DNA from: an uncultured Thermoplasmatales archaeon
GTDB taxonomy: Archaea > Thermoplasmatota > E2 > DHVEG-1
Reading direction: 5' to 3'
DNA: 17,589 bases
Assembly (NCBI GenBank): GCA_964533085.1
Contig: CAZHIY010000011.1
Coordinates: forward strand, 1-17,589
In this document: positions 1 to 17,093 of the stretch, one piece after another
Numbering within the stretch: the first letter of the stretch is position 1
Layout of the letters: each line of letters starts with the position of its first letter
Translations under genes and position numbers: made by a program
Notes under the pieces: model-generated
What the model was told of the DNA's origin: nothing
Databases searched by the model: none
The model's input: the letters and a program-made list of their open reading frames with translations, nothing else

Positions 1-1
1 T

Positions 2-3000
2 CTTGATTGTTCAGCTTGTATTCTTACTCCTAAAATGGTTGATGTAGCCCGTCATCCTAACGTTGAACTTTTAACCTATTCTCAAGTTGTTGGAGTCGAT
101 GGTTATGTAGGCAATTTCAGTGTAAAAATCCAAAAGAATCCCCGGTATATTGATGTAGAAAAATGTACTGGTTGTGGTGAGTGTTTCGATGGCTGTCCAG
201 TTGAGATGCCAAATGAGTTTGATATGGGAAAAGGTACAAGACATGCAATATACACACCTTTCCCACAGGCTGTTCCACTAAAAGCAACAATCGATAAGCG
301 TGGTATGCATCCATGCAGAGATGTCTGTCCTGCTGGAGTTGGAGCACCTGGCTATGTAACACTTGTCGGTCGCGGTAAGTTTTATGAGGCCTTACGGGTA
401 ATTAAAGAACGTCTTCCATTCCCATCAGTTTGTGGAAGGGTATGTCATAGACCTTGTGAAGGTGCTTGTACCCGAAAAGATATTGACGAACCAATTGGAA
501 TTGCACATCTGAAACGGTTTGTTGGTGATTTAGAACTTCATATACCCGCAATGGAGAAACCTCCAATTGAGACTAGAGCAGAAAGTATTGCTGTAATTGG
601 GGGTGGACCTGCAGGTCTTACTGCTGCTCATGACCTCGCTCTTAAGGGATATCATATAACTGTATTTGAATCTGCACCTGTCTTAGGTGGTATGATGAGA
701 TGGGGCATTCCTGCTTTTCGTCTTCCAAAAGAAATAATCGAGCGTGAAATTTCAGATATTCTTGCTCTTGGTGTAAGGGTTCAACTCAATACTATGCTTG
801 GTAGGGATTTCACAATTCCAGATCTATTTAAACGAGGTCATAAAGCTGTCTTTTTAGCAGTTGGTGCGCAAAATGGAAAAAAGATGACCATTCCTGGTGA
901 GGAATTAGAGGGAGTATTCCAAGCAATTGACTTTTTAAAGGAAATAAATCTAGGAAAGATTATTTCCACTCCAATTGCAGAAATTGATGATGAACTTTGT
1001 ATTGGTTGTGGAAAATGTGCAGAAGCCTGCTACTTTGGAATAATTCATCTTGAACCTGATAAACTTGATCCGAAAAAACAGTATCCAACGATACATAAAA
1101 AATACCTATGTAAGGGCTGTGGTAAATGTGCTCGTGTTTGCCCCTCAAAAGCAATTAAACTTAGTGGTTTTAAAGATATTGCTCCTACAATTGGAAAGAA
1201 GGTTATGGTTATCGGTGGAGGTAATGCTGCACTTGATACTGCAAGGTCTGCATTAAGGTTAGGTGCCGAAGAAGTTGCTATTTTATATAGACGTACCCGT
1301 GAGGAGATGCCAGCAGAACCAGATTGGGAGATTGATGAAACTGAACTTGAAGGTGTTCAACTTGTTTATCTTGTTGCGCCAACGAAAGTAATTGGTGATG
1401 ACAAAGGTAGGGTAAAAGCAATAGAATGTGTAAGAATGGAGCTTCTTGATGAACTTGATAAAAGTAATAGACGTAGGATTAAACCAATTCCGGGCTCCGA
1501 GTTTACTCTTGATTGCGATAGTATAATTCTAGCAATTGGTCAAGAGGTTGATACTGATGTTTTATCAAAGGATGTTAAACTAGAAGTAACTCCATGGAGT
1601 TCTAAAAGAGTCGATCCTGCTTCGTTTCCAAAAAATGGAGTCGATGATATCGAATTGACACCCTGGAGCACTATCCACGCTGATCCTCTGACATTGCAAA
1701 CTAACATTAAAGGCGTTTTCAGTGGTGGAGATGCAGTATGGGGTGCCGGAACTATAATTGAGGCAATAGGTGCGGGAAAAGAAGCAGCAATATCAATTGA
1801 TAGGTATCTAAACGGGGAAGATATAAGAAAAGGACGTGAAGAAAAACCAGAAATCGCCAAGCCCTCTATTGAAGGCATTAGAAAGAAATCTAAAGTCCCA
1901 ATGCGATATATGAATGTTAAAGACAGAGTAAACAACTTCAAAGAAGTAGAACTGGGTTATACTGAGGAAGAGGCAATTGAGGAGGCTCAGCGTTGTTTAG
2001 ATTGTGGAGGGTGTTCTGAATGTTTCGAGTGCGTACAGACTTGTGAAGCTGGTGCAATTAATCATGATATGAAACCTGAGATAGTCGATGTTAATGTTGG
2101 AGCAATAGTTGTTGCAACTGGTTTTGACTTATTTGATCCATTAGCAAAACCTGAATATGGCTATGGTAAATACAAAAATGTAGTTACAGGTATTGAGTTC
2201 GAACGGTTGGTTTCTGCATCAGGTCCGACCAGTGGTCATATTGAGATAAAAGGTAAGGAACCAAAGAAGGTTGTTTTTATCCAATGTGTTGGTTCAAGAG
2301 ATAAAGAAACCAATGAATATTGTTCCCGTGTTTGTTGTATGTACACTGCTAAACAAGCTCATTTAGTAAAGGAAAAAATCCCAAATTCTGAACTGGTTAT
2401 ATATTACACAGATATGAGAGCCTTTGGTAAGGGCTTTGAGGAGTTTTATAATCGTGTTCAGGGAGAAGGTGTAACCTATAGACGTCGAGAGCTTGCTGAT
2501 CCAATTGAAGTAACAATGAAAGATGGAAAAACAATTGTAAAGGCTAAGGGACATCCTGATGTTGAAGCCGATCTTGTTGTACTTGCAACAGGTATTATTC
2601 CACGTTCAGACAGTCAGGAGCTCACTAGGATTTTAAATATTAATCAGAGTGCTGATGGATTCATGCTTGAAGCACATCCAAAGCTTCGACCAGTTGATAC
2701 CTTTACAGATGGTATTTTCCTTGCTGGTTGCTGTCAAAGCCCGAAAGATGTACCAGATACTGTTGCACAGGCTATGGGTGCTGCGTCTAGAGTAACTGAT
2801 ATTTTATCAAAGAAACAACTATTAATTGATGCAACTGTTGCAAATGTAAATGAGGCTTTGTGTCGTGGCTGTGGTATTTGTGTTGAGGCATGTCCTTATA
2901 AGGCTATCGAACTAACTGAAGTAGATCGTTTTGGTCATAGGGTACTAGTTGCAACAGTAAATGAAGCTCTCTGTAAAGGATGTGGTTCATGCTCTGCTGC

Positions 3001-3079
3001 TTGTTTAAATGGTGCCATAGGCCACCTTGGATTTACAGATGGTCAAATCCTTGCGATGATTAAGGCATTAGGGGATTGA
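2..3079 (+). CDS. HdrA-type heterodisulfide-reductase subunit A-like flavoprotein with embedded GltD/NfnB-like NAD(P)H oxidoreductase module and extra ferredoxin domains (5' partial, 'HdrL-like')
   Basis: The frame is open from base 2 (LDCSACILTPKMVDVARHPNVELL, the conserved HdrA DCSxCILxPKM motif). The gene therefore starts left of the window and the ATG at 35 in the ORF track is internal. HdrA hallmarks: CTGCGECFDGCP, PFPQAVP, VATGFDLFDP, FIQCVGSRD, CSRVCCMY, FLAGCCQSPKD, and a C-terminal 2x CxxCxxCxxxCP. A GltD/NfnB-type module lies between them: CGRVCHRPCEGACTR, IAVIGGGPAGLTAAHDLALKGY, GGMMRWGIPAFRLPKE, KVMVIGGGNAALDTARSALRLGA, GVFSGGDAV. Stop TGA at 3077-3079. Confidence 0.88.
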   Translation, partial: LDCSACILTPKMVDVARHPNVELLTYSQVVGVDGYVGNFSVKIQKNPRYIDVEKCTGCGECFDGCPVEMPNEFDMGKGTRHAIYTPFPQAVPLKATIDKRGMHPCRDVCPAGVGAPGYVTLVGRGKFYEALRVIKERLPFPSVCGRVCHRPCEGACTRKDIDEPIGIAHLKRFVGDLELHIPAMEKPPIETRAESIAVIGGGPAGLTAAHDLALKGYHITVFESAPVLGGMMRWGIPAFRLPKEIIEREISDILALGVRVQLNTMLGRDFTIPDLFKRGHKAVFLAVGAQNGKKMTIPGEELEGVFQAIDFLKEINLGKIISTPIAEIDDELCIGCGKCAEACYFGIIHLEPDKLDPKKQYPTIHKKYLCKGCGKCARVCPSKAIKLSGFKDIAPTIGKKVMVIGGGNAALDTARSALRLGAEEVAILYRRTREEMPAEPDWEIDETELEGVQLVYLVAPTKVIGDDKGRVKAIECVRMELLDELDKSNRRRIKPIPGSEFTLDCDSIILAIGQEVDTDVLSKDVKLEVTPWSSKRVDPASFPKNGVDDIELTPWSTIHADPLTLQTNIKGVFSGGDAVWGAGTIIEAIGAGKEAAISIDRYLNGEDIRKGREEKPEIAKPSIEGIRKKSKVPMRYMNVKDRVNNFKEVELGYTEEEAIEEAQRCLDCGGCSECFECVQTCEAGAINHDMKPEIVDVNVGAIVVATGFDLFDPLAKPEYGYGKYKNVVTGIEFERLVSASGPTSGHIEIKGKEPKKVVFIQCVGSRDKETNEYCSRVCCMYTAKQAHLVKEKIPNSELVIYYTDMRAFGKGFEEFYNRVQGEGVTYRRRELADPIEVTMKDGKTIVKAKGHPDVEADLVVLATGIIPRSDSQELTRILNINQSADGFMLEAHPKLRPVDTFTDGIFLAGCCQSPKDVPDTVAQAMGAASRVTDILSKKQLLIDATVANVNEALCRGCGICVEACPYKAIELTEVDRFGHRVLVATVNEALCKGCGSCSAACLNGAIGHLGFTDGQILAMIKALGD

Positions 3080-5902: not shown

Positions 5903-5915
5903 TTATATCCTATAA

Positions 5916-5987
5916 CAGCCCTGAGCGGATTCGAACCGCTGTCGCTGGCTCCAAAGGCCAAAATGTTAACCGCTACACCACAGGGCT
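5916..5987 (-). tRNA. tRNA-Gln (anticodon UUG), no intron, CCA not encoded
   Basis: Minus-strand sequence folds as a cloverleaf: AGCCCTG TG GTGT AGCGGTTA ACAT T TTGGC CTTTGGA GCCAG CGAC AGCGG TTCGAAT CCGCT CAGGGCT G. 7-bp acceptor stem (A1-U72), anticodon loop C-U-UUG-G-A, T-loop TTCGAAT, discriminator G73. Confidence 0.93.
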
Positions 5988-6055
5988 ATTATATTTTTTA
6001 TTTTGGCAAATACAAATAATACTTATATACTTTTAACACTGATATCAAAATTTCT

Positions 6056-6220
6056 TTAATTCTTGTTTTGTTGCTGTTTTTGAATTTTTGCCCAAATATC
6101 CCTAAGAGTTGCTGTTCTGTTTATTATTAGTTTTTCATTTGTAGTATCTGGATCTATGCAGAAATAACCAAGACGTTCAAATTGAAATCTATCTAACGGT
6201 TTTAATTTTTTCAATTCTTG
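6056..6220 (-). other. glnS: In-frame continuation of glnS beyond the TAA at 6221-6223 (54 codons + TAA) encoding the conserved GlnRS C-terminus
   Basis: The codon directly after the TAA continues in the same frame: [54 protein letters not shown]. This matches the C-terminal end of bacterial GlnRS (E. coli ...[40 protein letters not shown], from memory). Confidence 0.85.
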
Positions 6221-7744
6221 TTAAATTTTACATGAATTGATTATTTCAAGTGAGTTGGGATTTAAAAAATCTTTAAAATCCTCATCTTTTTGTCCAGCTG
6301 GATCTTTTATTGTAAATAATCTTTCATAAAGTCGAACTTCAGCATCAATTGCACTTTCTGCTGATACCCAATGTATTGTTGCCCTTACCTTTCTTCCATC
6401 TGGTGCATATCCACCTTTTGTTGCGGGATCATATGTGCATCTTAACTCTATGATTTTATCATCTTTTTTAATTACTTCTTTGCATGTTATAAAATATGCA
6501 TACCTAAATCGTACCTCACGACCTGGAGCTAATCGATAGAACTTTTTTGGAGGATCCTCCATAAAATCATCTTGCTCGATATAAAGAACTTTTGAAAACG
6601 GAATTTTCCGCGTACCAGCATTTGGATCTTCCGGATTGTTAATTGCTTCGATTTCTTCTACTTGATCATCAGGATAATTTTCAATGACCACTTTTAATGG
6701 TCGTATTACACCCATAAATCGTAGGGCTGTTTTATTTAAATCCTCTCTAACAAAATGTTCAAGAAAATCAAAGTCGACCATGCTGTTTACTTTTGCTACT
6801 CCAATTCTTTTACAGAAATTCCTAATTGAGCTTGGAGAGTATCCACGTCTTCGCATACCAGAAATAGTAGGTAATCTTGGATCATCCCATCCCTTTACAT
6901 ATTTACCATCAACCAATTCTAGTAACATTCTTTTGCTCATTACTGTGAATGTTAGATTTAATCGGGCAAACTCAATTTGTTGTGGATGATATACATTTAG
7001 AGCATCAAGGAACCAATCATAAAGAGGTCTATGGTTCTCAAATTCAAGAGTACAGATAGAATGTGTTATACCCTCTATTGAATCTTCAAGACCATGTGCC
7101 CAGTCATACATTGGATAGATGCACCATTTATCCTTCGTGCGATGATGCGAAGCATGTAATATTCTATACATTATTGGATCCCGCATGTTAAGATTAGGAT
7201 GACTCATGTCAATTTTCGCTCGAAGTACTTTTTCTCCATCTCCAAATTCACCTGCTTTCATTCGGTCAAAAAGATTAAGATTTTCTTCTACACTCCGATC
7301 ACGATTCGGACTATTTTCTCCAGGAGTTGTTGTTGTTCCTCTATACCAAGAAATTTCTTCTGCGGATAAATCATCAACGTATGCTTTCCCGTCTTTTACT
7401 AGTTTTACAGCGTATTCATACATTTGATCAAAATAGTCTGAACCAAAAAGTAATCGGTCATCCCAATCAAATCCTAGCCATCGAACATTTTCAATAATTG
7501 ATTTAACATATTCCTCTTCTTCTTTTGTAGGATTTGTATCATCAAATCGAAGATTACACAAACCTCCATAATCCTCAGCAATTCCAAAATTTAAACAAAT
7601 AGACTTTGCATGACCGATATGAAGATAACCATTTGGCTCAGGCGGAAACCTTGTATGTACACGACCTTCATACTTATTGGTTTTTAAATCTTCATCAATA
7701 ATCTCTCGAATAAAATCTTTAGAAATATTATTTGTTTTTTGCAT
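6221..7744 (-). CDS. glnS: Glutaminyl-tRNA synthetase, bacterial type (as called, ends at an in-frame TAA; see 6056-6220)
   Basis: Class I aaRS motifs HIGH ([11 protein letters not shown]) and KMSKS-type (FTVMSKR). Long GlnRS-specific runs: [82 protein letters not shown]. The start is placed at ATG 7744 ([20 protein letters not shown]) because the longer ORF-track start (7831) reads through the upstream tRNA gene. Confidence 0.92.
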
Positions 7745-7773
7745 ATTTATTTCACTATCCCACCTTATTTCTA

Positions 7774-7845
7774 CAGCCCCGACCAGATTCGAACTGGTGA
7801 CTAGAGATCCAGAGTCTCTTATGTTAACCACTACACTACGGGGCT
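7774..7845 (-). tRNA. tRNA-Gln (anticodon CUG), no intron, CCA not encoded
   Basis: Minus-strand cloverleaf: AGCCCCG TA GTGT AGTGGTTA ACAT A AGAGA CTCTGGA TCTCT AGTC ACCAG TTCGAAT CTGGT CGGGGCT G. A1-U72, discriminator G73. Its 3' end lies 29 nt upstream of the glnS ATG. Confidence 0.93.
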
Positions 7846-7875
7846 AGCAAATTTAATCTGATGATAAGAATTTTC

Positions 7876-7941: not shown

Positions 7942-8412
7942 TTACAGTTTCCCTCTAGTTAGATCAAAAATCTCTAAATAAATTTTATATAAACAAAAAT
8001 TTCTATTAAAATGATAAATTATTGGAGATTTATTTAAGAACTTAAGTAGTAAGGAGCATATTATAATTCTATTTCTTGGAATTGTGACTTCCAATTCACC
8101 TAATTTACCCTCCTGATAAAAAATATCTTTTGCTTTAGCTTTAATTATGTATTTTCCCTTTTCAGTCCATGTATGACTTATAATTTCTTCTTCTCCTGAT
8201 TTGAAAGGTCCAACCCATTCCTCAATAGTACCATCCCCCCAATCAATCCAGAGATAAACATCATCTGAATCAGGATCTATTGATGAGAATGTAAAATTGT
8301 ATTCTTGGTCTACTTTACCAATTATTGGACCTTTAATTTTTGGTTTATTTGGTGGAAGGTTTAGGTCACCCCACGGATCCATTAAGGGGTACATGTCTTT
8401 ATTGTTCCCCCC
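7942..8412 (-). CDS. C-terminal part of a frameshifted NosD-like surface protein: PKD-like domain + hydrophobic tail
   Basis: From the G-run onward the frame reads GGNNKDMYPLMDPWGDLNLPPNKPKIKGPIIGKVDQEYNFTFSSIDPDSDDVYLWIDWGDGTIEEW...GELEVTIPRNR. This is the natural continuation of the upstream beta-helix ORF (NosD-like proteins typically read ...GG.N.D.YPL..PW). The upstream part of the 204-aa track ORF (8413-8556) is out-of-frame overlap, not real coding sequence. Confidence 0.7.
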   Translation of the reverse strand, partial: GGNNKDMYPLMDPWGDLNLPPNKPKIKGPIIGKVDQEYNFTFSSIDPDSDDVYLWIDWGDGTIEEWVGPFKSGEEEIISHTWTEKGKYIIKAKAKDIFYQEGKLGELEVTIPRNRIIICSLLLKFLNKSPIIYHFNRNFCLYKIYLEIFDLTRGKL

Positions 8413-9253
8413 CTGGTATGTAATATGGTGTATCGCCGATACCATCACCATCATTATCTGTACCATTATAATCGTTCCAGTAATTGCCACCAGATGGATA
8501 TCCATCGTCCCATATATTGTATGGACCTCCACGTTCAAAAGCTTGATATTCACCATTATTTACAAAGTTGTTATGATGAATTTTATTAAACTCTCCTCCA
8601 CCTTCGCACATATCCAATAGTATACCTTCTTCATCGTTTGATATAATATTGTTTGAAATAATATGGTTATACGCAGACATAATCATGTAAATCCCTCTGT
8701 TGTTTTCTGATATATTGTTGTGATTAATCAAATTGTGACTATGATGATTACTGCTTGTATGTTCTAAATGGATACCATCATTTGTGTTGGTTGATATATT
8801 GTTGTAAGAGATAATGTTGTTATCGCTATTTTCTATACCCATATATTGTATTCGAAACATAACACCATTACGGTTTTCAGTTAAAATATTATATTCTACA
8901 GCCCCATTTGTTACATTAATAAACACAATCCCATCATTTTGTATATCGCCATCAAAAATGTAACAGTTTATAATTTTAAAATACATACTTGTATTTCTGA
9001 TAGTTATGCCATCCTGAGAAGAGGCATATATCTCCCAGTTTTCAATAATATAAGGATTATTAGTAGTTCCAGATCCTCCTGTTACACCATTTTCACTTAT
9101 GAATTCGTCATTTCCATTGATATAAATCGGTTTATGAAGTGTATATGATGATTTATTAGAAGAAAAATCAGCATAACTAGCATTAAAAGTAGGTGAAAAG
9201 GCTAGATTGAATAAGAATAAAATAACAAATAATGCTAATAATTTCCTAACCAA
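8399..9253 (-). CDS. N-terminal part of a secreted right-handed parallel beta-helix (PbH1 / NosD-like) protein, truncated by a frameshift
   Basis: Signal-peptide-like N-terminus (MVRKLLALFVILFLFNLAFS). Repeated ~22-aa N/I/G-rich beta-helix repeats follow (NCYIFDG..., YNILTENRNGV, YNNISTNTNDGIHL, HNNISENNRGIYM, NNIISNDEEGILL, HNNFVNN). It ends GDGIGDTPYYIPGGEQ* directly at a G7 run. Confidence 0.8.
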   Translation of the reverse strand: MVRKLLALFVILFLFNLAFSPTFNASYADFSSNKSSYTLHKPIYINGNDEFISENGVTGGSGTTNNPYIIENWEIYASSQDGITIRNTSMYFKIINCYIFDGDIQNDGIVFINVTNGAVEYNILTENRNGVMFRIQYMGIENSDNNIISYNNISTNTNDGIHLEHTSSNHHSHNLINHNNISENNRGIYMIMSAYNHIISNNIISNDEEGILLDMCEGGGEFNKIHHNNFVNNGEYQAFERGGPYNIWDDGYPSGGNYWNDYNGTDNDGDGIGDTPYYIPGGEQ

Positions 9254-12424: not shown

Positions 12425-12470
12425 AGTTCTCCCTCAAATTGGTATCCTGAATAAATAACCAATTAATATA

Positions 12471-12477
12471 TTTATAT
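12471..12477 (+). promoter_or_regulatory. Candidate TATA box (TTTATAT) about 27 nt upstream of ATG 12501, suggesting a leaderless mRNA
   Basis: The 76-nt divergent intergenic region is AT-rich (AATTAATATATTTATATG). There is no SD-like purine run between the box and ATG 12501, unlike most other genes in the window. Confidence 0.35.
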
Positions 12478-12500
12478 GAATCTTGTTATTCTATCGAATC

Positions 12501-13967
12501 ATGAAAAACTTCCATGTAGCAATTATTGGGGCAGGTGTAATAGGATCTTCTATTGCATGGGAGTTATCAAAATATAAGCTTGATGTTGTTGTTTTTGAGA
12601 AAGGAAGTGATGTTGCTTCTGGTACAAGTAAGGCCAATAGTGGAGTTATTCATAGTGGAATTAATTCTCCAGTATCTTCCTTAAAAGCTTGGTTTTGTGT
12701 TGAAGGTAACAAGATGCTTCAACCACTATCAGATTCTTTAGGTTTTTCACTTAAATGGATTGGAAAATATGTAATTGCGAAAAATGAGGATGAATTAAAA
12801 GAGCTTATTCGGCTTAAAAAAGTCGGTCAAGAAAATGGAGTTTCTGGTTTGGAAATTAAAGATAAAGATGAGGTTAAGGCAAAAGAACCAAATATACCAT
12901 GCTACAAAGCTTTATGGGTACCATCTGCAGGTATAATTTTACCATATGAATTTACAATTGCATTTGCTGAAAACGCTGCTATCAATAATGTTAATTTTTC
13001 ACTTGAAACAGAAGTCATAGACCTCCAGAAAAAAGAAAATAATTTTGTAATAAAAACTAACAAGGGAAAATTTCAGTCAAAAATATTAGTAAATGCAGCA
13101 GGATTAAATTGTAGAGATATTTTATCAATGTTACAAGAACCGGATTTTAATGTCTATCCATGTAGGGGAGAATATCTTGTTTTAGATAAAGCCTATAGCC
13201 ATATAGTTAAATCTATGATTTATCCAACCCCTCCAAAAAAACTAGGAGTTTTGGGTGTTCATATCACACCAACAATTGAAGGAAATATCCTTCTCGGGCC
13301 TAGTGCCGAGTTTGTTGATGATTCCAATAATAAAATTACTACAAAAAAAATGATGAATACTTTACTAAGGGAAGCAAAAGAAATTCTTCCAGGCTTACCT
13401 GAAAAAGCTATTATTAATGCATATTCAGGAATCAGATGCAAACTTGCCTCACCGGATGAGGGTGGATGGGCAGATTACAGAATTGAGGAAGGCAAAAAGA
13501 CACCTGATTTGATAAACCTTTTAGGAATTGAATCACCTGGTCTTACTGCTGCACCAGCTATTGCAAAAGAAGTTGTCAAGATGATATCAAAGTCTATTGA
13601 TTTAAAGACTAAAACTGATTTTAAATCTAAAAAAATTAAAAATAATCATTTTTTTGAAATGAGTTCCAAGGAAAAATCTGATTTAATAAAAAAAGATCAA
13701 AGATGGGGTAGAGTTGTTTGTAGATGTGAACATATTACAGAAGCTGAAATTTTTAATGCTTTAAAAAATCCCTTAAAAGCACAAACTCTTTCAGCTGTAA
13801 AGTATCGTTGTAGAGCTGGAATGGGCAGATGTCAGGGAGGATTTTGCACTCAGCATATTGTACGAATTATGGAAGAAGATTTTAATATTGATGTTAAAAA
13901 AATGAAATTAAAATCTTTAAAATCCAATCTTTTTTATGGTAGAACGCGGGAGAATCACAATGATTAA
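12501..13967 (+). CDS. FAD-dependent glycerol-3-phosphate dehydrogenase-like oxidoreductase (GlpA-like) with C-terminal BFD-like [2Fe-2S] domain
   Basis: N-terminal dinucleotide fold VAIIGAGVIGSSIAWEL...FEKGSDVASGTSKANSGVIHSG. C-terminal CRCEHITEAEI...RCRAGMGRCQGGFC (BFD-like Cys pattern). The start is placed at ATG 12501 rather than the TTG at 12483 in the track. Confidence 0.75.
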   Translation: MKNFHVAIIGAGVIGSSIAWELSKYKLDVVVFEKGSDVASGTSKANSGVIHSGINSPVSSLKAWFCVEGNKMLQPLSDSLGFSLKWIGKYVIAKNEDELKELIRLKKVGQENGVSGLEIKDKDEVKAKEPNIPCYKALWVPSAGIILPYEFTIAFAENAAINNVNFSLETEVIDLQKKENNFVIKTNKGKFQSKILVNAAGLNCRDILSMLQEPDFNVYPCRGEYLVLDKAYSHIVKSMIYPTPPKKLGVLGVHITPTIEGNILLGPSAEFVDDSNNKITTKKMMNTLLREAKEILPGLPEKAIINAYSGIRCKLASPDEGGWADYRIEEGKKTPDLINLLGIESPGLTAAPAIAKEVVKMISKSIDLKTKTDFKSKKIKNNHFFEMSSKEKSDLIKKDQRWGRVVCRCEHITEAEIFNALKNPLKAQTLSAVKYRCRAGMGRCQGGFCTQHIVRIMEEDFNIDVKKMKLKSLKSNLFYGRTRENHND

Positions 13968-15213
13968 TCTTAATGTTGATGTAGCTGTGATTGGAGCTGG
14001 ACCAGCGGGTTTAGCTGCCGCTATTTCAGCATTTGAAAACGGCTCAAAAGATGTTTTAGTAATAGATAGAAATAGTTGGTTAGGAGGTATTTTACCACAG
14101 TGTATACATGATGGTTTTGGAGTCGAGGAACTTGGGACTTCATTGACCGGACCTGAGTATGCAGAGATGTATATTGAAACTGCTGAGAAATTAGGTATTA
14201 ATTTCTTATGTAAGACCATGGTTATGCAAATTTTCAAAAATCATGAGATCATAGCAGTTAACAATAAAGGATTGCATAAAGTTAAAGCAAAATCTATAGT
14301 ACTTGCGATGGGATGTCGAGAAAAGACAAGATGGGATGTCATGATACCTGGTGATCGTCCAAGTGGTATCTATACAGCGGGTGTTGCTCAAGGTTTCATA
14401 AACCTATACAACATTATGGTTGGAAAAAATGTTGTTATTTTAGGATCTGGAGATGTAGGCCTTATCGTTGCTCGCCGTTTAAGGTTTGAAGGTGCTAACG
14501 TTCTTGGGGTAATCGAAATTTTACCCTTTGCTAGTGGTCTACCAAGAAATGTTGTTCAATGTCTTGATGACTATGATATTCCTCTTTATCTTAATCATAC
14601 TGTAACCTACATAAAGGGTAGGGAGAGACTTGAGAGCGTTACTATTTCACAAGTAGATGAAAATAATACTCTTATTTCTGGTACTGATAAAGAGATAAAA
14701 TGCGATACTCTACTACTTTCACTTGGTTTGATTCCTGAAAATGAGTTATCTAAACAAGTTGATATTGAAATAGATAGGTTAACTGGGGGACCAATTGTTA
14801 ATCAATTTTTTGAAACAACAGTTCCAGGAATATTTGCTTGCGGTAACTGTCTTCAAGTCTATGATACAGTGGATATTTTATCAGTTGGTGCTAAACATGC
14901 TGGTAAATATGCAGCTAAATATGTTACAAAGCAAAAAAGCAAGCATATTGGTTATGTTAAAGTCATAGCTGGTAAAGATATCCGATATGTTATTCCTCAG
15001 CGGATTAATAAATCAGGAAATGTACGTTTTAGTCTGAGAGTCAAAACTCCTAAGAAATCAGCAATAGTTCATGTATCTGCTGGAAATGATATACTTTTAA
15101 AGAAAAAATTACCATGGGCATATCCAGCAAATATGATTGAATTTGAGGTTAACATCCCGGATGATATCATTAATTCTAATAAAGACTTGGAGGTAACTCT
15201 TGATGACAGATGA
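13960..15213 (+). CDS. FAD/NAD(P)-binding pyridine-nucleotide-disulfide-type oxidoreductase (NOX-like partner of the G3PDH-like protein)
   Basis: VAVIGAGPAGLAAAISAFENG and a second Rossmann motif VVILGSGDVGLIVARRL, plus GIFACGNC near the FAD-binding C-terminal motif. ATG 13960 (MINLNVD...) has GGGAG upstream and overlaps the upstream stop (ATGATTAA). ATG 13936 is an alternative start. Confidence 0.75.
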   Translation: MINLNVDVAVIGAGPAGLAAAISAFENGSKDVLVIDRNSWLGGILPQCIHDGFGVEELGTSLTGPEYAEMYIETAEKLGINFLCKTMVMQIFKNHEIIAVNNKGLHKVKAKSIVLAMGCREKTRWDVMIPGDRPSGIYTAGVAQGFINLYNIMVGKNVVILGSGDVGLIVARRLRFEGANVLGVIEILPFASGLPRNVVQCLDDYDIPLYLNHTVTYIKGRERLESVTISQVDENNTLISGTDKEIKCDTLLLSLGLIPENELSKQVDIEIDRLTGGPIVNQFFETTVPGIFACGNCLQVYDTVDILSVGAKHAGKYAAKYVTKQKSKHIGYVKVIAGKDIRYVIPQRINKSGNVRFSLRVKTPKKSAIVHVSAGNDILLKKKLPWAYPANMIEFEVNIPDDIINSNKDLEVTLDDR

Positions 15214-15571
15214 GAAAGTGATAACATGTATTGTTTGCCCAATTGGCTGCAAAATATTAGTTAGAACAGATGGTAAGTATTTTGAAATCTCCAATGGAAA
15301 TAAGTGTATTAAGGGTGTCGAATATGCAAAAGCTGAAGCTCTTGATCCCAAAAGAATGCTTACTAGCTCAGTTCTTGTAAAAAATGGCGAATGGTCACTT
15401 GTCAGTGTTAAAAGTTCTAAACCTGTTCCTAAAAATAAATTATTTCAAGTTTTAAAACAAATAAGGGAAGTGAAAGTTGATGCACCAGTTTTGCTTGGAC
15501 AAAATATGATAAAAAACGTTGCAAATACTGGAATTAATATTATTGCGACTAAATCGGTTAAAAGAGTGTAA
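15203..15571 (+). CDS. DUF1667-domain protein (small Cys-containing third subunit of G3PDH/NOX-type complexes)
   Basis: About 122 aa. N-terminal ITCIVCPIGCKI...GNKCIKG Cys pattern and size are typical of DUF1667. GGAGGT lies 9 nt upstream of the ATG. The start overlaps the upstream stop by 11 nt. Confidence 0.7.
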   Translation: MTDEKVITCIVCPIGCKILVRTDGKYFEISNGNKCIKGVEYAKAEALDPKRMLTSSVLVKNGEWSLVSVKSSKPVPKNKLFQVLKQIREVKVDAPVLLGQNMIKNVANTGINIIATKSVKRV

Positions 15572-15605
15572 ATATTTGCTATTTTTTATCTGATTTTTAG
15601 GAGAT

Positions 15606-15616
15606 TTTATATATAG
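15606..15616 (+). promoter_or_regulatory. Candidate TATA box (TTTTATATATA) upstream of hdrC
   Basis: It lies in the 108-nt AT-rich intergenic region after T-tracts (ATTTTTTATCTGATTTTT) that may terminate the upstream triad, about 65 nt upstream of ATG 15680. A second AT box (CTATAAATAA, 15641-15650) is an alternative. Confidence 0.25.
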
Positions 15617-15679
15617 AAATAAGATACAAATCTTGCAAAACTATAAATAATTAACACATGTTAATTGGAAGTGGTGTCT

Positions 15680-16207
15680 ATGGGTATCGTAGATTTGACT
15701 TCTATGGGGGAGTCACAGGTTAATCTTAGAAACGAAATAAATGAAAGATTATCAAGATTACAAGATGAAATATCTGATTATTGTTATCAATGTGCTAAGT
15801 GTACCTCGGGTTGTGAAGCTCATAAGTTACTTGAGCTTGAGCCACATAAAATTGTTGCTCTACTTAAAAGAGGTCTTATTGATGAGATGATTAATTCTGA
15901 TGTCATCTGGACTTGTATGAGTTGTTTTAAATGTCGTGAACGCTGTCCACAAAAAGTTGCTCCGGTTGAAATTTTATTTGCACTAAAAAACATGGCTGTT
16001 GCAAGTGGTAAACAGATACCTGGGAACTATACAGCAATGCTGCAGTCAGTTTTATCTATCGGTCTTTTACAAGATATAAAAAGTGTTACAACTCGTGATA
16101 ATAAGACAAAAAGTCGATCAGATTTTGGTCTTCCTGAAATTTCAAAACCAACTGATTCAACAAAATTTCAGATGATACTTTCAAAACTTGCAGTTGAAAA
16201 GGTTTAA
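15680..16207 (+). CDS. hdrC: Heterodisulfide reductase subunit C
   Basis: Two HdrC-type cluster motifs: CYQCAKCTSGCEA and CMSCFKCRERCPQ. ATG 15680 is preceded by GGAAGTGGTG. The TTG at 15665 in the track is less likely to be the start. Confidence 0.88.
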   Translation: MGIVDLTSMGESQVNLRNEINERLSRLQDEISDYCYQCAKCTSGCEAHKLLELEPHKIVALLKRGLIDEMINSDVIWTCMSCFKCRERCPQKVAPVEILFALKNMAVASGKQIPGNYTAMLQSVLSIGLLQDIKSVTTRDNKTKSRSDFGLPEISKPTDSTKFQMILSKLAVEKV

Positions 16208-16220
16208 GGGAGGTTTTTTA

Positions 16221-17093
16221 ATGAAAAGTTACGTGCTTTATCCCGGTTGCGTGATGCCAACCGAACAATATGCATATGAAATGTCAATTCGAGAAGTTTT
16301 TCCATTTCTAGATATAAAACTTGTAGATCTAAAGGATTTTTCTTGTTGTGGAGAACCTATTAAAAGCGTTAATCAAATGTTAGCTCTTGCATTATCCGCA
16401 AGAAATATTGCAATTGCCGAAAAAGAAGGCCTTGATATATTTGCTCCATGTCCAATGTGTCATTTGGCTCTTAGTGAAAGTAAAAGAATTCTTGATGCAG
16501 ATCCTGCTATGAAGGAAAAGATAAATAAGTTTCTTGCTGACGAAGGATTATCGTACAATGGTAAATCTGTTATTGTAAATACCCTTGATCTTCTATATGA
16601 CATTGTTGGTATTGATAAAATAAAGAATCTCGCCAAGAAACCCTTAAATGATCTCAAAGTTGCTACTCATTATGGATGTCATTTGATTAGACCAAGTGAA
16701 ATTGGTCGTCCAGATGACTCAGAAAATCCACAAAAAATGGAAAAAATACTTGAAGCAATTGGTGCAAAACCTATTGATTATCCAGAAAAACTTGATTGTT
16801 GTGGTGGATTATTAAATGCAAACCTTCCTGAATCAGCTCTTACTAAAACCGGTCAGAAACTTCAGAAAGTTCAAGAGCAAGGTTTTGATGCTTTTATTGA
16901 TACTTGCCCTTGGTGTCATCGTCAATATGATTCCAAACAAACCAAAGCAGGTGAAATTGTTGCTGCAAAACTGGAAGTTCCTGTTTTTTATCTAACTCAA
17001 CTCATAGGACTTTCATTTGGTATTTCTAGTGAAAAGCTTGGTCTTGATTTAAATCTGAGCCCCGTTGATAAACTTAATCTTGGAGGTAAATGA
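16221..17093 (+). CDS. hdrB: Heterodisulfide reductase subunit B (two CCG domains)
   Basis: MKSYVLYPGC..., then CCG motifs FSCCGEP ... CPMC and LDCCGG ... CPWC. SD AAGGGAGG lies 6-8 nt upstream of ATG 16221. The TTG at 16188 in the track would overlap hdrC and span the SD. Confidence 0.9.
   Translation: MKSYVLYPGCVMPTEQYAYEMSIREVFPFLDIKLVDLKDFSCCGEPIKSVNQMLALALSARNIAIAEKEGLDIFAPCPMCHLALSESKRILDADPAMKEKINKFLADEGLSYNGKSVIVNTLDLLYDIVGIDKIKNLAKKPLNDLKVATHYGCHLIRPSEIGRPDDSENPQKMEKILEAIGAKPIDYPEKLDCCGGLLNANLPESALTKTGQKLQKVQEQGFDAFIDTCPWCHRQYDSKQTKAGEIVAAKLEVPVFYLTQLIGLSFGISSEKLGLDLNLSPVDKLNLGGK

Follow-up and report, generated by a model that had tools for sequence, protein, structure and literature searches.

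To our knowledge, textbooks describe the archaea as the domain without glutaminyl-tRNA synthetase (GlnRS). Reviews from 2022 report all, or almost all, known archaea to be without this enzyme and put its absence partly down to an archaeal tRNA-Gln (A73) that is orthogonal to the G73-recognizing bacterial GlnRS (PMC9499178, PMC8762117). On the bacterial side, GlnRS structures are at hand from E. coli (1GTR/1QRS) and P. aeruginosa (5BNZ). Stop codons that are followed by coding sequence are known from programmed read-through of the TMV/MuLV type, in which a conserved coding extension follows an in-frame stop and opens with CAA immediately after it; the classic read-through stops are UAG or UGA. 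In prfB (RF2) autoregulation, the stop in the gene of a translation factor is bypassed according to the factor's own activity level, and both the stop and the shift site are conserved across bacteria.

The locus analyzed here lies in a window of 17,589 nt, which is the whole stretch of DNA under study and stems from an uncultured Thermoplasmatales archaeon. Its glnS gene occupies the minus strand, starts with ATG at 7744–7742, and runs through 507 sense codons into an in-frame TAA at 6221–6223 (codon 508). Past this TAA, the glnS frame stays open for 54 more codons (6220–6059), up to a second TAA at 6056–6058. Both the in-frame stop and the 54 codons behind it are therefore found where an earlier note on this DNA had placed them. 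The joined frame comprises 562 codons and aligns without gaps to orthologues of exactly 562 amino acids. The features of the locus are the following:

5915..5988, minus strand: tRNA-Gln(UUG), with A1:U72 and G73, 67 nt past the natural glnS stop
6056..6058, minus strand: natural glnS stop TAA, common to the orthologues
6059..6217, minus strand: last 53 GlnRS codons including FQFER, intact and the same as in same-strain contigs
6218..6220, minus strand: derived CAA (Gln), codon 509; CCA in orthologues, Pro in 216/239 homologues
6221..6223, minus strand: premature TAA, codon 508; GAA in orthologues, Glu in 237/239 homologues
6224..7744, minus strand: glnS codons 1–507, with the catalytic domain, the first anticodon-binding barrel, and the start of the second; motifs HIGH at residue 42 and VMSKR at ~268 (MSK 269)
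7773..7846, minus strand: tRNA-Gln(CUG), with A1:U72 and G73, directly upstream of glnS
7942–8556 and 8399–9253, minus strand: two pieces of a NosD-like gene, with a frameshift in a homopolymer

Judged by its motifs and the presence of all three Pfam domains, the window gene is a bacterial-type glutaminyl-tRNA synthetase of class Ib. A Pfam scan of the joined frame places PF00749 at residues 29–337 (E = 1e-109) and PF03950 at residues 340–439 (E = 8e-29). The second anticodon-binding barrel (PF20974, E = 2e-23) is matched from residue 456 to residue 531 and thereby spans the stop at residue 508. Alignments with the GlnRS structures of E. coli and P. aeruginosa run from end to end (E ~1e-203 to 1e-210), and the Glu of their “...AEPSL...” stands opposite the window stop. 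Since Pfam and structures reveal homology along the whole tail, the open tail is not due to chance. The view that the tail is part of the anticodon-binding region of GlnRS, with its spacing kept, is likewise confirmed by the PF20974 match and the gapless orthologue alignment. Like the E. coli and P. aeruginosa enzymes, with which it is collinear over the full length, the predicted protein contains HIGH, VMSKR, and FQFER. In contrast to both, it is archaeal, encoded between two tRNA-Gln genes, and interrupted at codon 508.

The gene is not an isolated case among its relatives. More than 100 full-length GlnRS relatives (560–566 aa, 80–94% identity) are encoded in MAGs of Thermoplasmatales/Thermoplasmata, three of them on contigs of 1.8–2.3 Mb. 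The window itself is syntenic with GCA_030672305.1 (L001, 86–89% nucleotide identity) and with Thermoplasmatales archaeon SG8-52-1 (L002). The cassette tRNA-Gln(CUG)–glnS–tRNA-Gln(UUG) occupies positions 5915–7846 of the window and recurs in L001 (9900–11831), in L093 (3900–5830), which is the complete genome CP070712.1, and in L094 (3900–5831). Its conservation among Thermoplasmatales archaea extends to genomes on the contigs of 1.8–2.3 Mb. The tRNA-Gln(UUG) gene reported downstream of glnS is present, and it is a regular member of this arrangement. All ten tRNA-Gln copies examined (10/10) combine an A1:U72 pair with the discriminator G73. The window GlnRS shares ~72–73% identity with its best bacterial relatives. 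When species-representative genomes were searched with the 507-aa protein, the matches listed were bacterial GlnRS (at most 73% identity), with no close archaeal relative among them. The pairing of an archaeal A1:U72 with a bacterial G73 fits a tRNA that has become co-adapted to an acquired enzyme. We consider this GlnRS/tRNA-Gln cassette a better target for follow-up than the stop codon.

At the site of the stop, the orthologue proteins closest to the window read ...CKIEPELKK..., as against ...CKI-stop-QELKK... in the window, and all full-length orthologues carry ...CK(I/V)EPE.... On the DNA level, GAA CCA is found in L001, L093, L094, L084, and L085, compared with TAA CAA in the window. The earlier note had called for a comparison of orthologous loci, and this comparison returns a sense codon, GAA (Glu), in every orthologue with DNA. 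Both codon changes are reachable by point mutation, GAA to TAA by a single G>T and CCA to CAA by a single C>A. Of 239 aligned homologues, 237 have Glu and the other 2 Asp in the column of the stop; in the next column, 216 of the 239 have Pro.

Three same-strain contigs were found by a metagenome-contig pattern search together with a look-up of the exact 82-aa downstream neighbor. L085 (= L083, Ga0307426_1075499) agrees with the window in 1328 of the 1330 bases aligned and has one 9-nt gap; its two mismatches are exactly the two changed bases at codons 508–509. L084 is 98.4% identical to the window and has GAA CCA. L086 (Ga0307445_10109333) is the same as the window except for a 30-nt deletion, which takes out the site. 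Further, the window shares 100.000% identity with four contigs from independent assemblies (L089–L092, compared over 952, 2829, 1150, and 1143 nt), which shows that the window consensus is accurate elsewhere. Relative to its nearest kin, the window thus displays a clustered double G:C>T:A change, consisting of two substitutions 4 nt apart, and otherwise zero substitutions. Apart from this stop cluster, the 562 codons contain no other lesion, and the rest is identical to the sister contigs. A protein search with the C-terminal 197 aa for further same-strain alleles returned only the product of L084 (98% identity), and a search of 5.8 billion proteins contained no complete gene call ending at ...NSCKI. 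Look-ups of products encoded by the window itself (GlnRS of 507 aa, PEPCK-like protein of 637 aa, N-terminal NosD piece of 284 aa) likewise gave no recorded entry. Within the sequences compared, the stop is private to the window, being absent from the orthologues and from otherwise identical same-strain contigs.

Two relatives show irregularities of their own. The SG8-52-1 contig LSSD01000017.1 (L002 7519–7529) ends in ...GTTGAACCAGA, 3 nt beyond the changed codons, and this end yields a “partial” GlnRS of 509 aa (P0057). L094 is identical to L002 over the 130 nt compared and then continues normally. We rejected the contig end as meaningful and regard it as a weak coincidence (~1 in 6), since a truncated protein reaches the top-hit list only if it is cut in the last ~60 codons. 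The GlnRS relative P0001 (ENA, 832 aa, on a 6.5-kb contig) carries an internal tandem duplication of ~270 residues (...YRNRSVEENLDLF... twice), which probably reflects either an error of assembly or a genuine duplication in a lineage further removed.

Selection on the tail was assessed by pairwise Nei-Gojobori comparison among the window, L001, L093, and L094. The dN/dS values lie at 0.05–0.13 for codons 510–562 and at 0.055–0.078 for codons 1–507. This check, which the earlier note had proposed, reveals strong purifying selection on the tail, the same as on the rest of the gene; neutral evolution is not seen. The constraint is seen only where the tail belongs to an uninterrupted open reading frame, not downstream of a retained stop. 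Moreover, it had been argued that the intact downstream sequence speaks against long-standing pseudogenization. This argument carries no weight, as there are zero other substitutions relative to the sister contigs: at zero divergence there has been no time for decay, and the intact tail is uninformative. That no secondary decay has set in tells us no more than that the lesion is either very young or not real.

The sister contigs also vary near the end of glnS. The in-frame deletion in L086 corresponds to window positions 6219–6248 (30 nt, ten codons) and covers both changed bases; the segment deleted here is missing from none of the 239 homologues. L085, which has the wild-type GAA CCA, lacks 9 nt in frame at about window positions 6128–6139 (codons 536–539), which removes Asp-Thr-Thr from the length-variable GlnRS loop IDPDTTNEK. 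Both deletions fall in the same 110 nt. Together with the stop, three lesions are found in the ~750 nt compared versus none in ~8 kb elsewhere (Fisher p = 6e-4), a comparison that carries ascertainment bias, as two of the three contigs were retrieved via the gene downstream of glnS. The occurrence of different in-frame lesions in one region points to real local micro-diversity. The L086 deletion could have arisen as damage unrelated to the stop, or it could have pseudo-reverted the TAA allele in frame. Excision on the RNA level, of the bulge-helix-bulge type, was also considered for the L086 gap and set aside: a general look at the predicted fold gives no hint of it, and there is no sign that the contigs derive from RNA.

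The neighborhood of glnS contains a second broken frame. A gene for a surface protein with NosD/beta-helix and PKD parts is split by a +1 in seven G (gene strand) at window positions 8407–8413. Deleting one G in this run restores a single open reading frame of 436 aa, which is collinear with the 423-aa orthologue in L001; the latter has GGTGGG at the homopolymer site and encodes a single protein. Either the frame is really shifted or the consensus is wrong in the homopolymer, and a +1 in a 7-base homopolymer is a classic signature of such an error. The contig thus probably holds two gene-breaking lesions or errors, one at glnS codon 508 and one at 8407–8413 in the NosD-like gene.

The window differs from its relatives in gene content as well. 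Between the NosD-like gene and tRNA-Gln(CUG), L001, L002, and L094 have a 338-aa GGR_cat-like gene, which the window (7944–7988) is without. Similarly, a gene of 357–359 aa and of unknown family, placed between the gene for a DAO-type dehydrogenase and larA in L001 and L002, is missing at window positions ~12464–12481. The stretch 1–3079 encodes a large fusion of an HdrA-like flavoprotein with ferredoxin, which runs off the window start and has an orthologue of 1212 aa in L094. At 12483–17093, a trio of DAO+BFD, Pyr_redox_2, and DUF1667 is followed by two open reading frames that look HdrC- and HdrB-like by eye. A LarA-type gene and a divergent PEPCK-like gene of 637 aa are also found in the window.

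Among the explanations of the stop, we give the largest share, about an even chance, to a young nonsense allele, private to one lineage, in an otherwise intact and constrained glnS. A clustered double G:C>T:A change would have turned GAA CCA (Glu508-Pro509) into TAA CAA, and the assembler would have picked up the resulting allele from a population with micro-diversity in precisely this part of glnS. With translation ending at codon 508, the GlnRS set free would be without the last third of the second anticodon-binding barrel. Background near-cognate read-through would give only traces of full-length protein, and even these would be without the invariant Glu and the conserved Pro. We infer that the allele exists in cells, which may survive via the ancestral archaeal GatDE route, unless it represents a transient deleterious variant. 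The FQFER segment presumably contributes anticodon contacts in the E. coli GlnRS complex. For glutamine identity determinants, the anticodon included, mutations are reported to lower kcat by up to ~1e4–1e5 (review PMC9976931). As anticodon determinants matter for catalysis and FQFER is lost, the truncated GlnRS, which ends inside PF20974, would be expected to be inactive or nearly so. A nonsense mutation at an invariant residue in a gene with a dN/dS of ~0.06 should be strongly deleterious and would be surprising as the majority allele.

This last point bears on the reading that the stop is an error of the consensus, which is quite possible though short of an even chance. Here, the organism would have GAA CCA, a 5-base patch GAACC would have been read as TAACA in a consensus of low coverage or prone to errors, and the gene would be intact, without any biological event at the site. 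An otherwise identical contig from another assembly indeed has GAA CCA, the affected residue is an invariant one in a constrained gene, and the NosD-like gene 2.2 kb away is broken by the +1 in its 7-base homopolymer (8407–8413). Both changes also lie inside one 5-mer, as a single miscalled k-mer would give; for two changes 4 nt apart on zero divergence, one artefactual k-mer fits as well as a multinucleotide mutation. However, over 6.1 kb four independent contigs agree with the window at 100.000% identity, L085 and L086 are identical to it outside the lesions, and the other in-frame variants that independent assemblies display in the same 110 nt look biological. Of the three options that the earlier note had listed, a recent nonsense mutation and a sequencing error are both supported and are not separated from one another; read-through is not supported.

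Two more specific origins of the change were rejected. A systematic miscall linked to the motif is contradicted by 25 further GAACC motifs that stand intact in the window. With its changed bases, the mutant sequence comes to read AACAAGAATT (6212–6221, minus strand), a 10-mer that equals the natural 3′ end of glnS (6058–6067) 150 nt downstream. The wild type already matches AACAAGAATT at 9 of 10 positions. A mutation templated from this 3′ end would account for the C>A only and not for the G>T, and we regard the match as a coincidence in A-rich sequence.

A variant of the nonsense reading, which we hold to be rather unlikely, takes the stop as belonging to a set of real lesions that arose independently within the last ~250 nt of glnS (TAA CAA in the window, the 30-nt deletion in L086, and the 9-nt deletion in L085) in an otherwise clonal population. 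If this were true, a bacterial GlnRS gained by horizontal transfer would be in the course of inactivation, its archaeal host having kept the GatDE route. Alternatively, an in-frame deletion would have pseudo-reverted an earlier nonsense mutation, so that the tail was translated again. Under this several-lesions reading, the population would offer a natural experiment on the dispensability of the direct Gln-tRNA-Gln pathway in an archaeon.

Functional readings of the stop are improbable even when taken together. The earlier note had favored, as a speculation, a feedback in which full-length GlnRS is made only by Gln-tRNA-Gln(UUG) misreading the UAA, so that completion of the enzyme is coupled to its own product. 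In eukaryotes, tRNA-Gln is established as a near-cognate decoder of UAA; here, the tail is in frame and undamaged, and tRNA-Gln genes flank glnS. These genes are, however, equally present beside uninterrupted orthologues, which indicates that the tRNAs belong to the locus and not to the stop. Moreover, the stop is followed by C, and the claim of a leaky context (UAA CAA GAA compared with stop-CAR-YYA) holds for CAR, to which CAA conforms, but not for YYA, which the following GAA does not fit. Neither the 120 nt that follow the stop nor the surrounding region folds more stably than its shuffled versions (z = −1.22, +0.62, +0.05), which gives no sign of a stimulatory RNA structure, and an Rfam scan of the window returned only the two tRNAs and no recoding element. 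The stop is conserved in no orthologue or same-strain contig, UAA is the preferred genuine terminator here, and a protein made by read-through would have Gln, Tyr, or Lys where the invariant Glu belongs, in addition to the Pro>Gln exchange. With the stop unconserved, the proposed feedback is already largely refuted as something that evolved; with both the Glu and the adjacent Pro changed as well, we judge it unsupported and very improbable.

Still more improbable is a GlnRS in two pieces, in which translation would restart at TTG 6214–6212 and a C-terminal peptide of 52 aa would join the 507-aa body non-covalently. Split aminoacyl-tRNA synthetases exist in other lineages, and the TTG-start open reading frame (6056–6214, 52 aa) opens 6 nt after the stop, two codons on. 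Against this, no relative is split, all being single proteins of 560–566 aa; no Shine-Dalgarno-like sequence precedes the TTG when read by eye; and the break would fall inside a β-barrel domain, with loss of the invariant Glu. Reassignment of TAA as a sense codon, for which nothing speaks beyond the single in-frame TAA itself, is close to negligible. TAA ends at least seven neighboring genes at the same positions as in their orthologues, the lengths of which match (637, 415, 495, 158, 82, and 67 aa), no other gene contains an in-frame TAA, and the window encodes no suppressor tRNA. With TGA ending three neighboring genes, TAG two, and TAA at least seven, all three stop codons terminate neighbors, TAA most often, and we therefore rejected a change of the code.

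Compared with the known systems, the locus resembles programmed read-through of the TMV/MuLV type in having an in-frame stop, a conserved coding extension, and CAA directly 3′. In contrast to that type, its stop is unconserved and is followed neither by YYA nor by any downstream structure that folding revealed; moreover, it is a UAA and not one of the classic read-through stops. The proposed feedback is conceptually alike to prfB autoregulation. Unlike the conserved prfB stop with its shift site, the window stop is private to one sequence and comes with no recoding signal. Read-through and prfB autoregulation are both defined by a conserved stop and a stimulatory signal, both of which were looked for here and neither of which was found; the feedback idea is accordingly unsupported. 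As a candidate for recoding, the stop is of no importance, being a one-off lesion without evolutionary support. The closest counterpart is a young nonsense allele in a natural population, which is likewise premature compared with all orthologues, absent from near-identical relatives, and still free of secondary decay downstream. It departs from the usual young nonsense allele in affecting an aminoacyl-tRNA synthetase on which purifying selection is strong, and in consisting of two substitutions 4 nt apart. The feature, real as it is in the sequence, is an ordinary private premature stop that stems from a recent nonsense mutation or from an error of the consensus.
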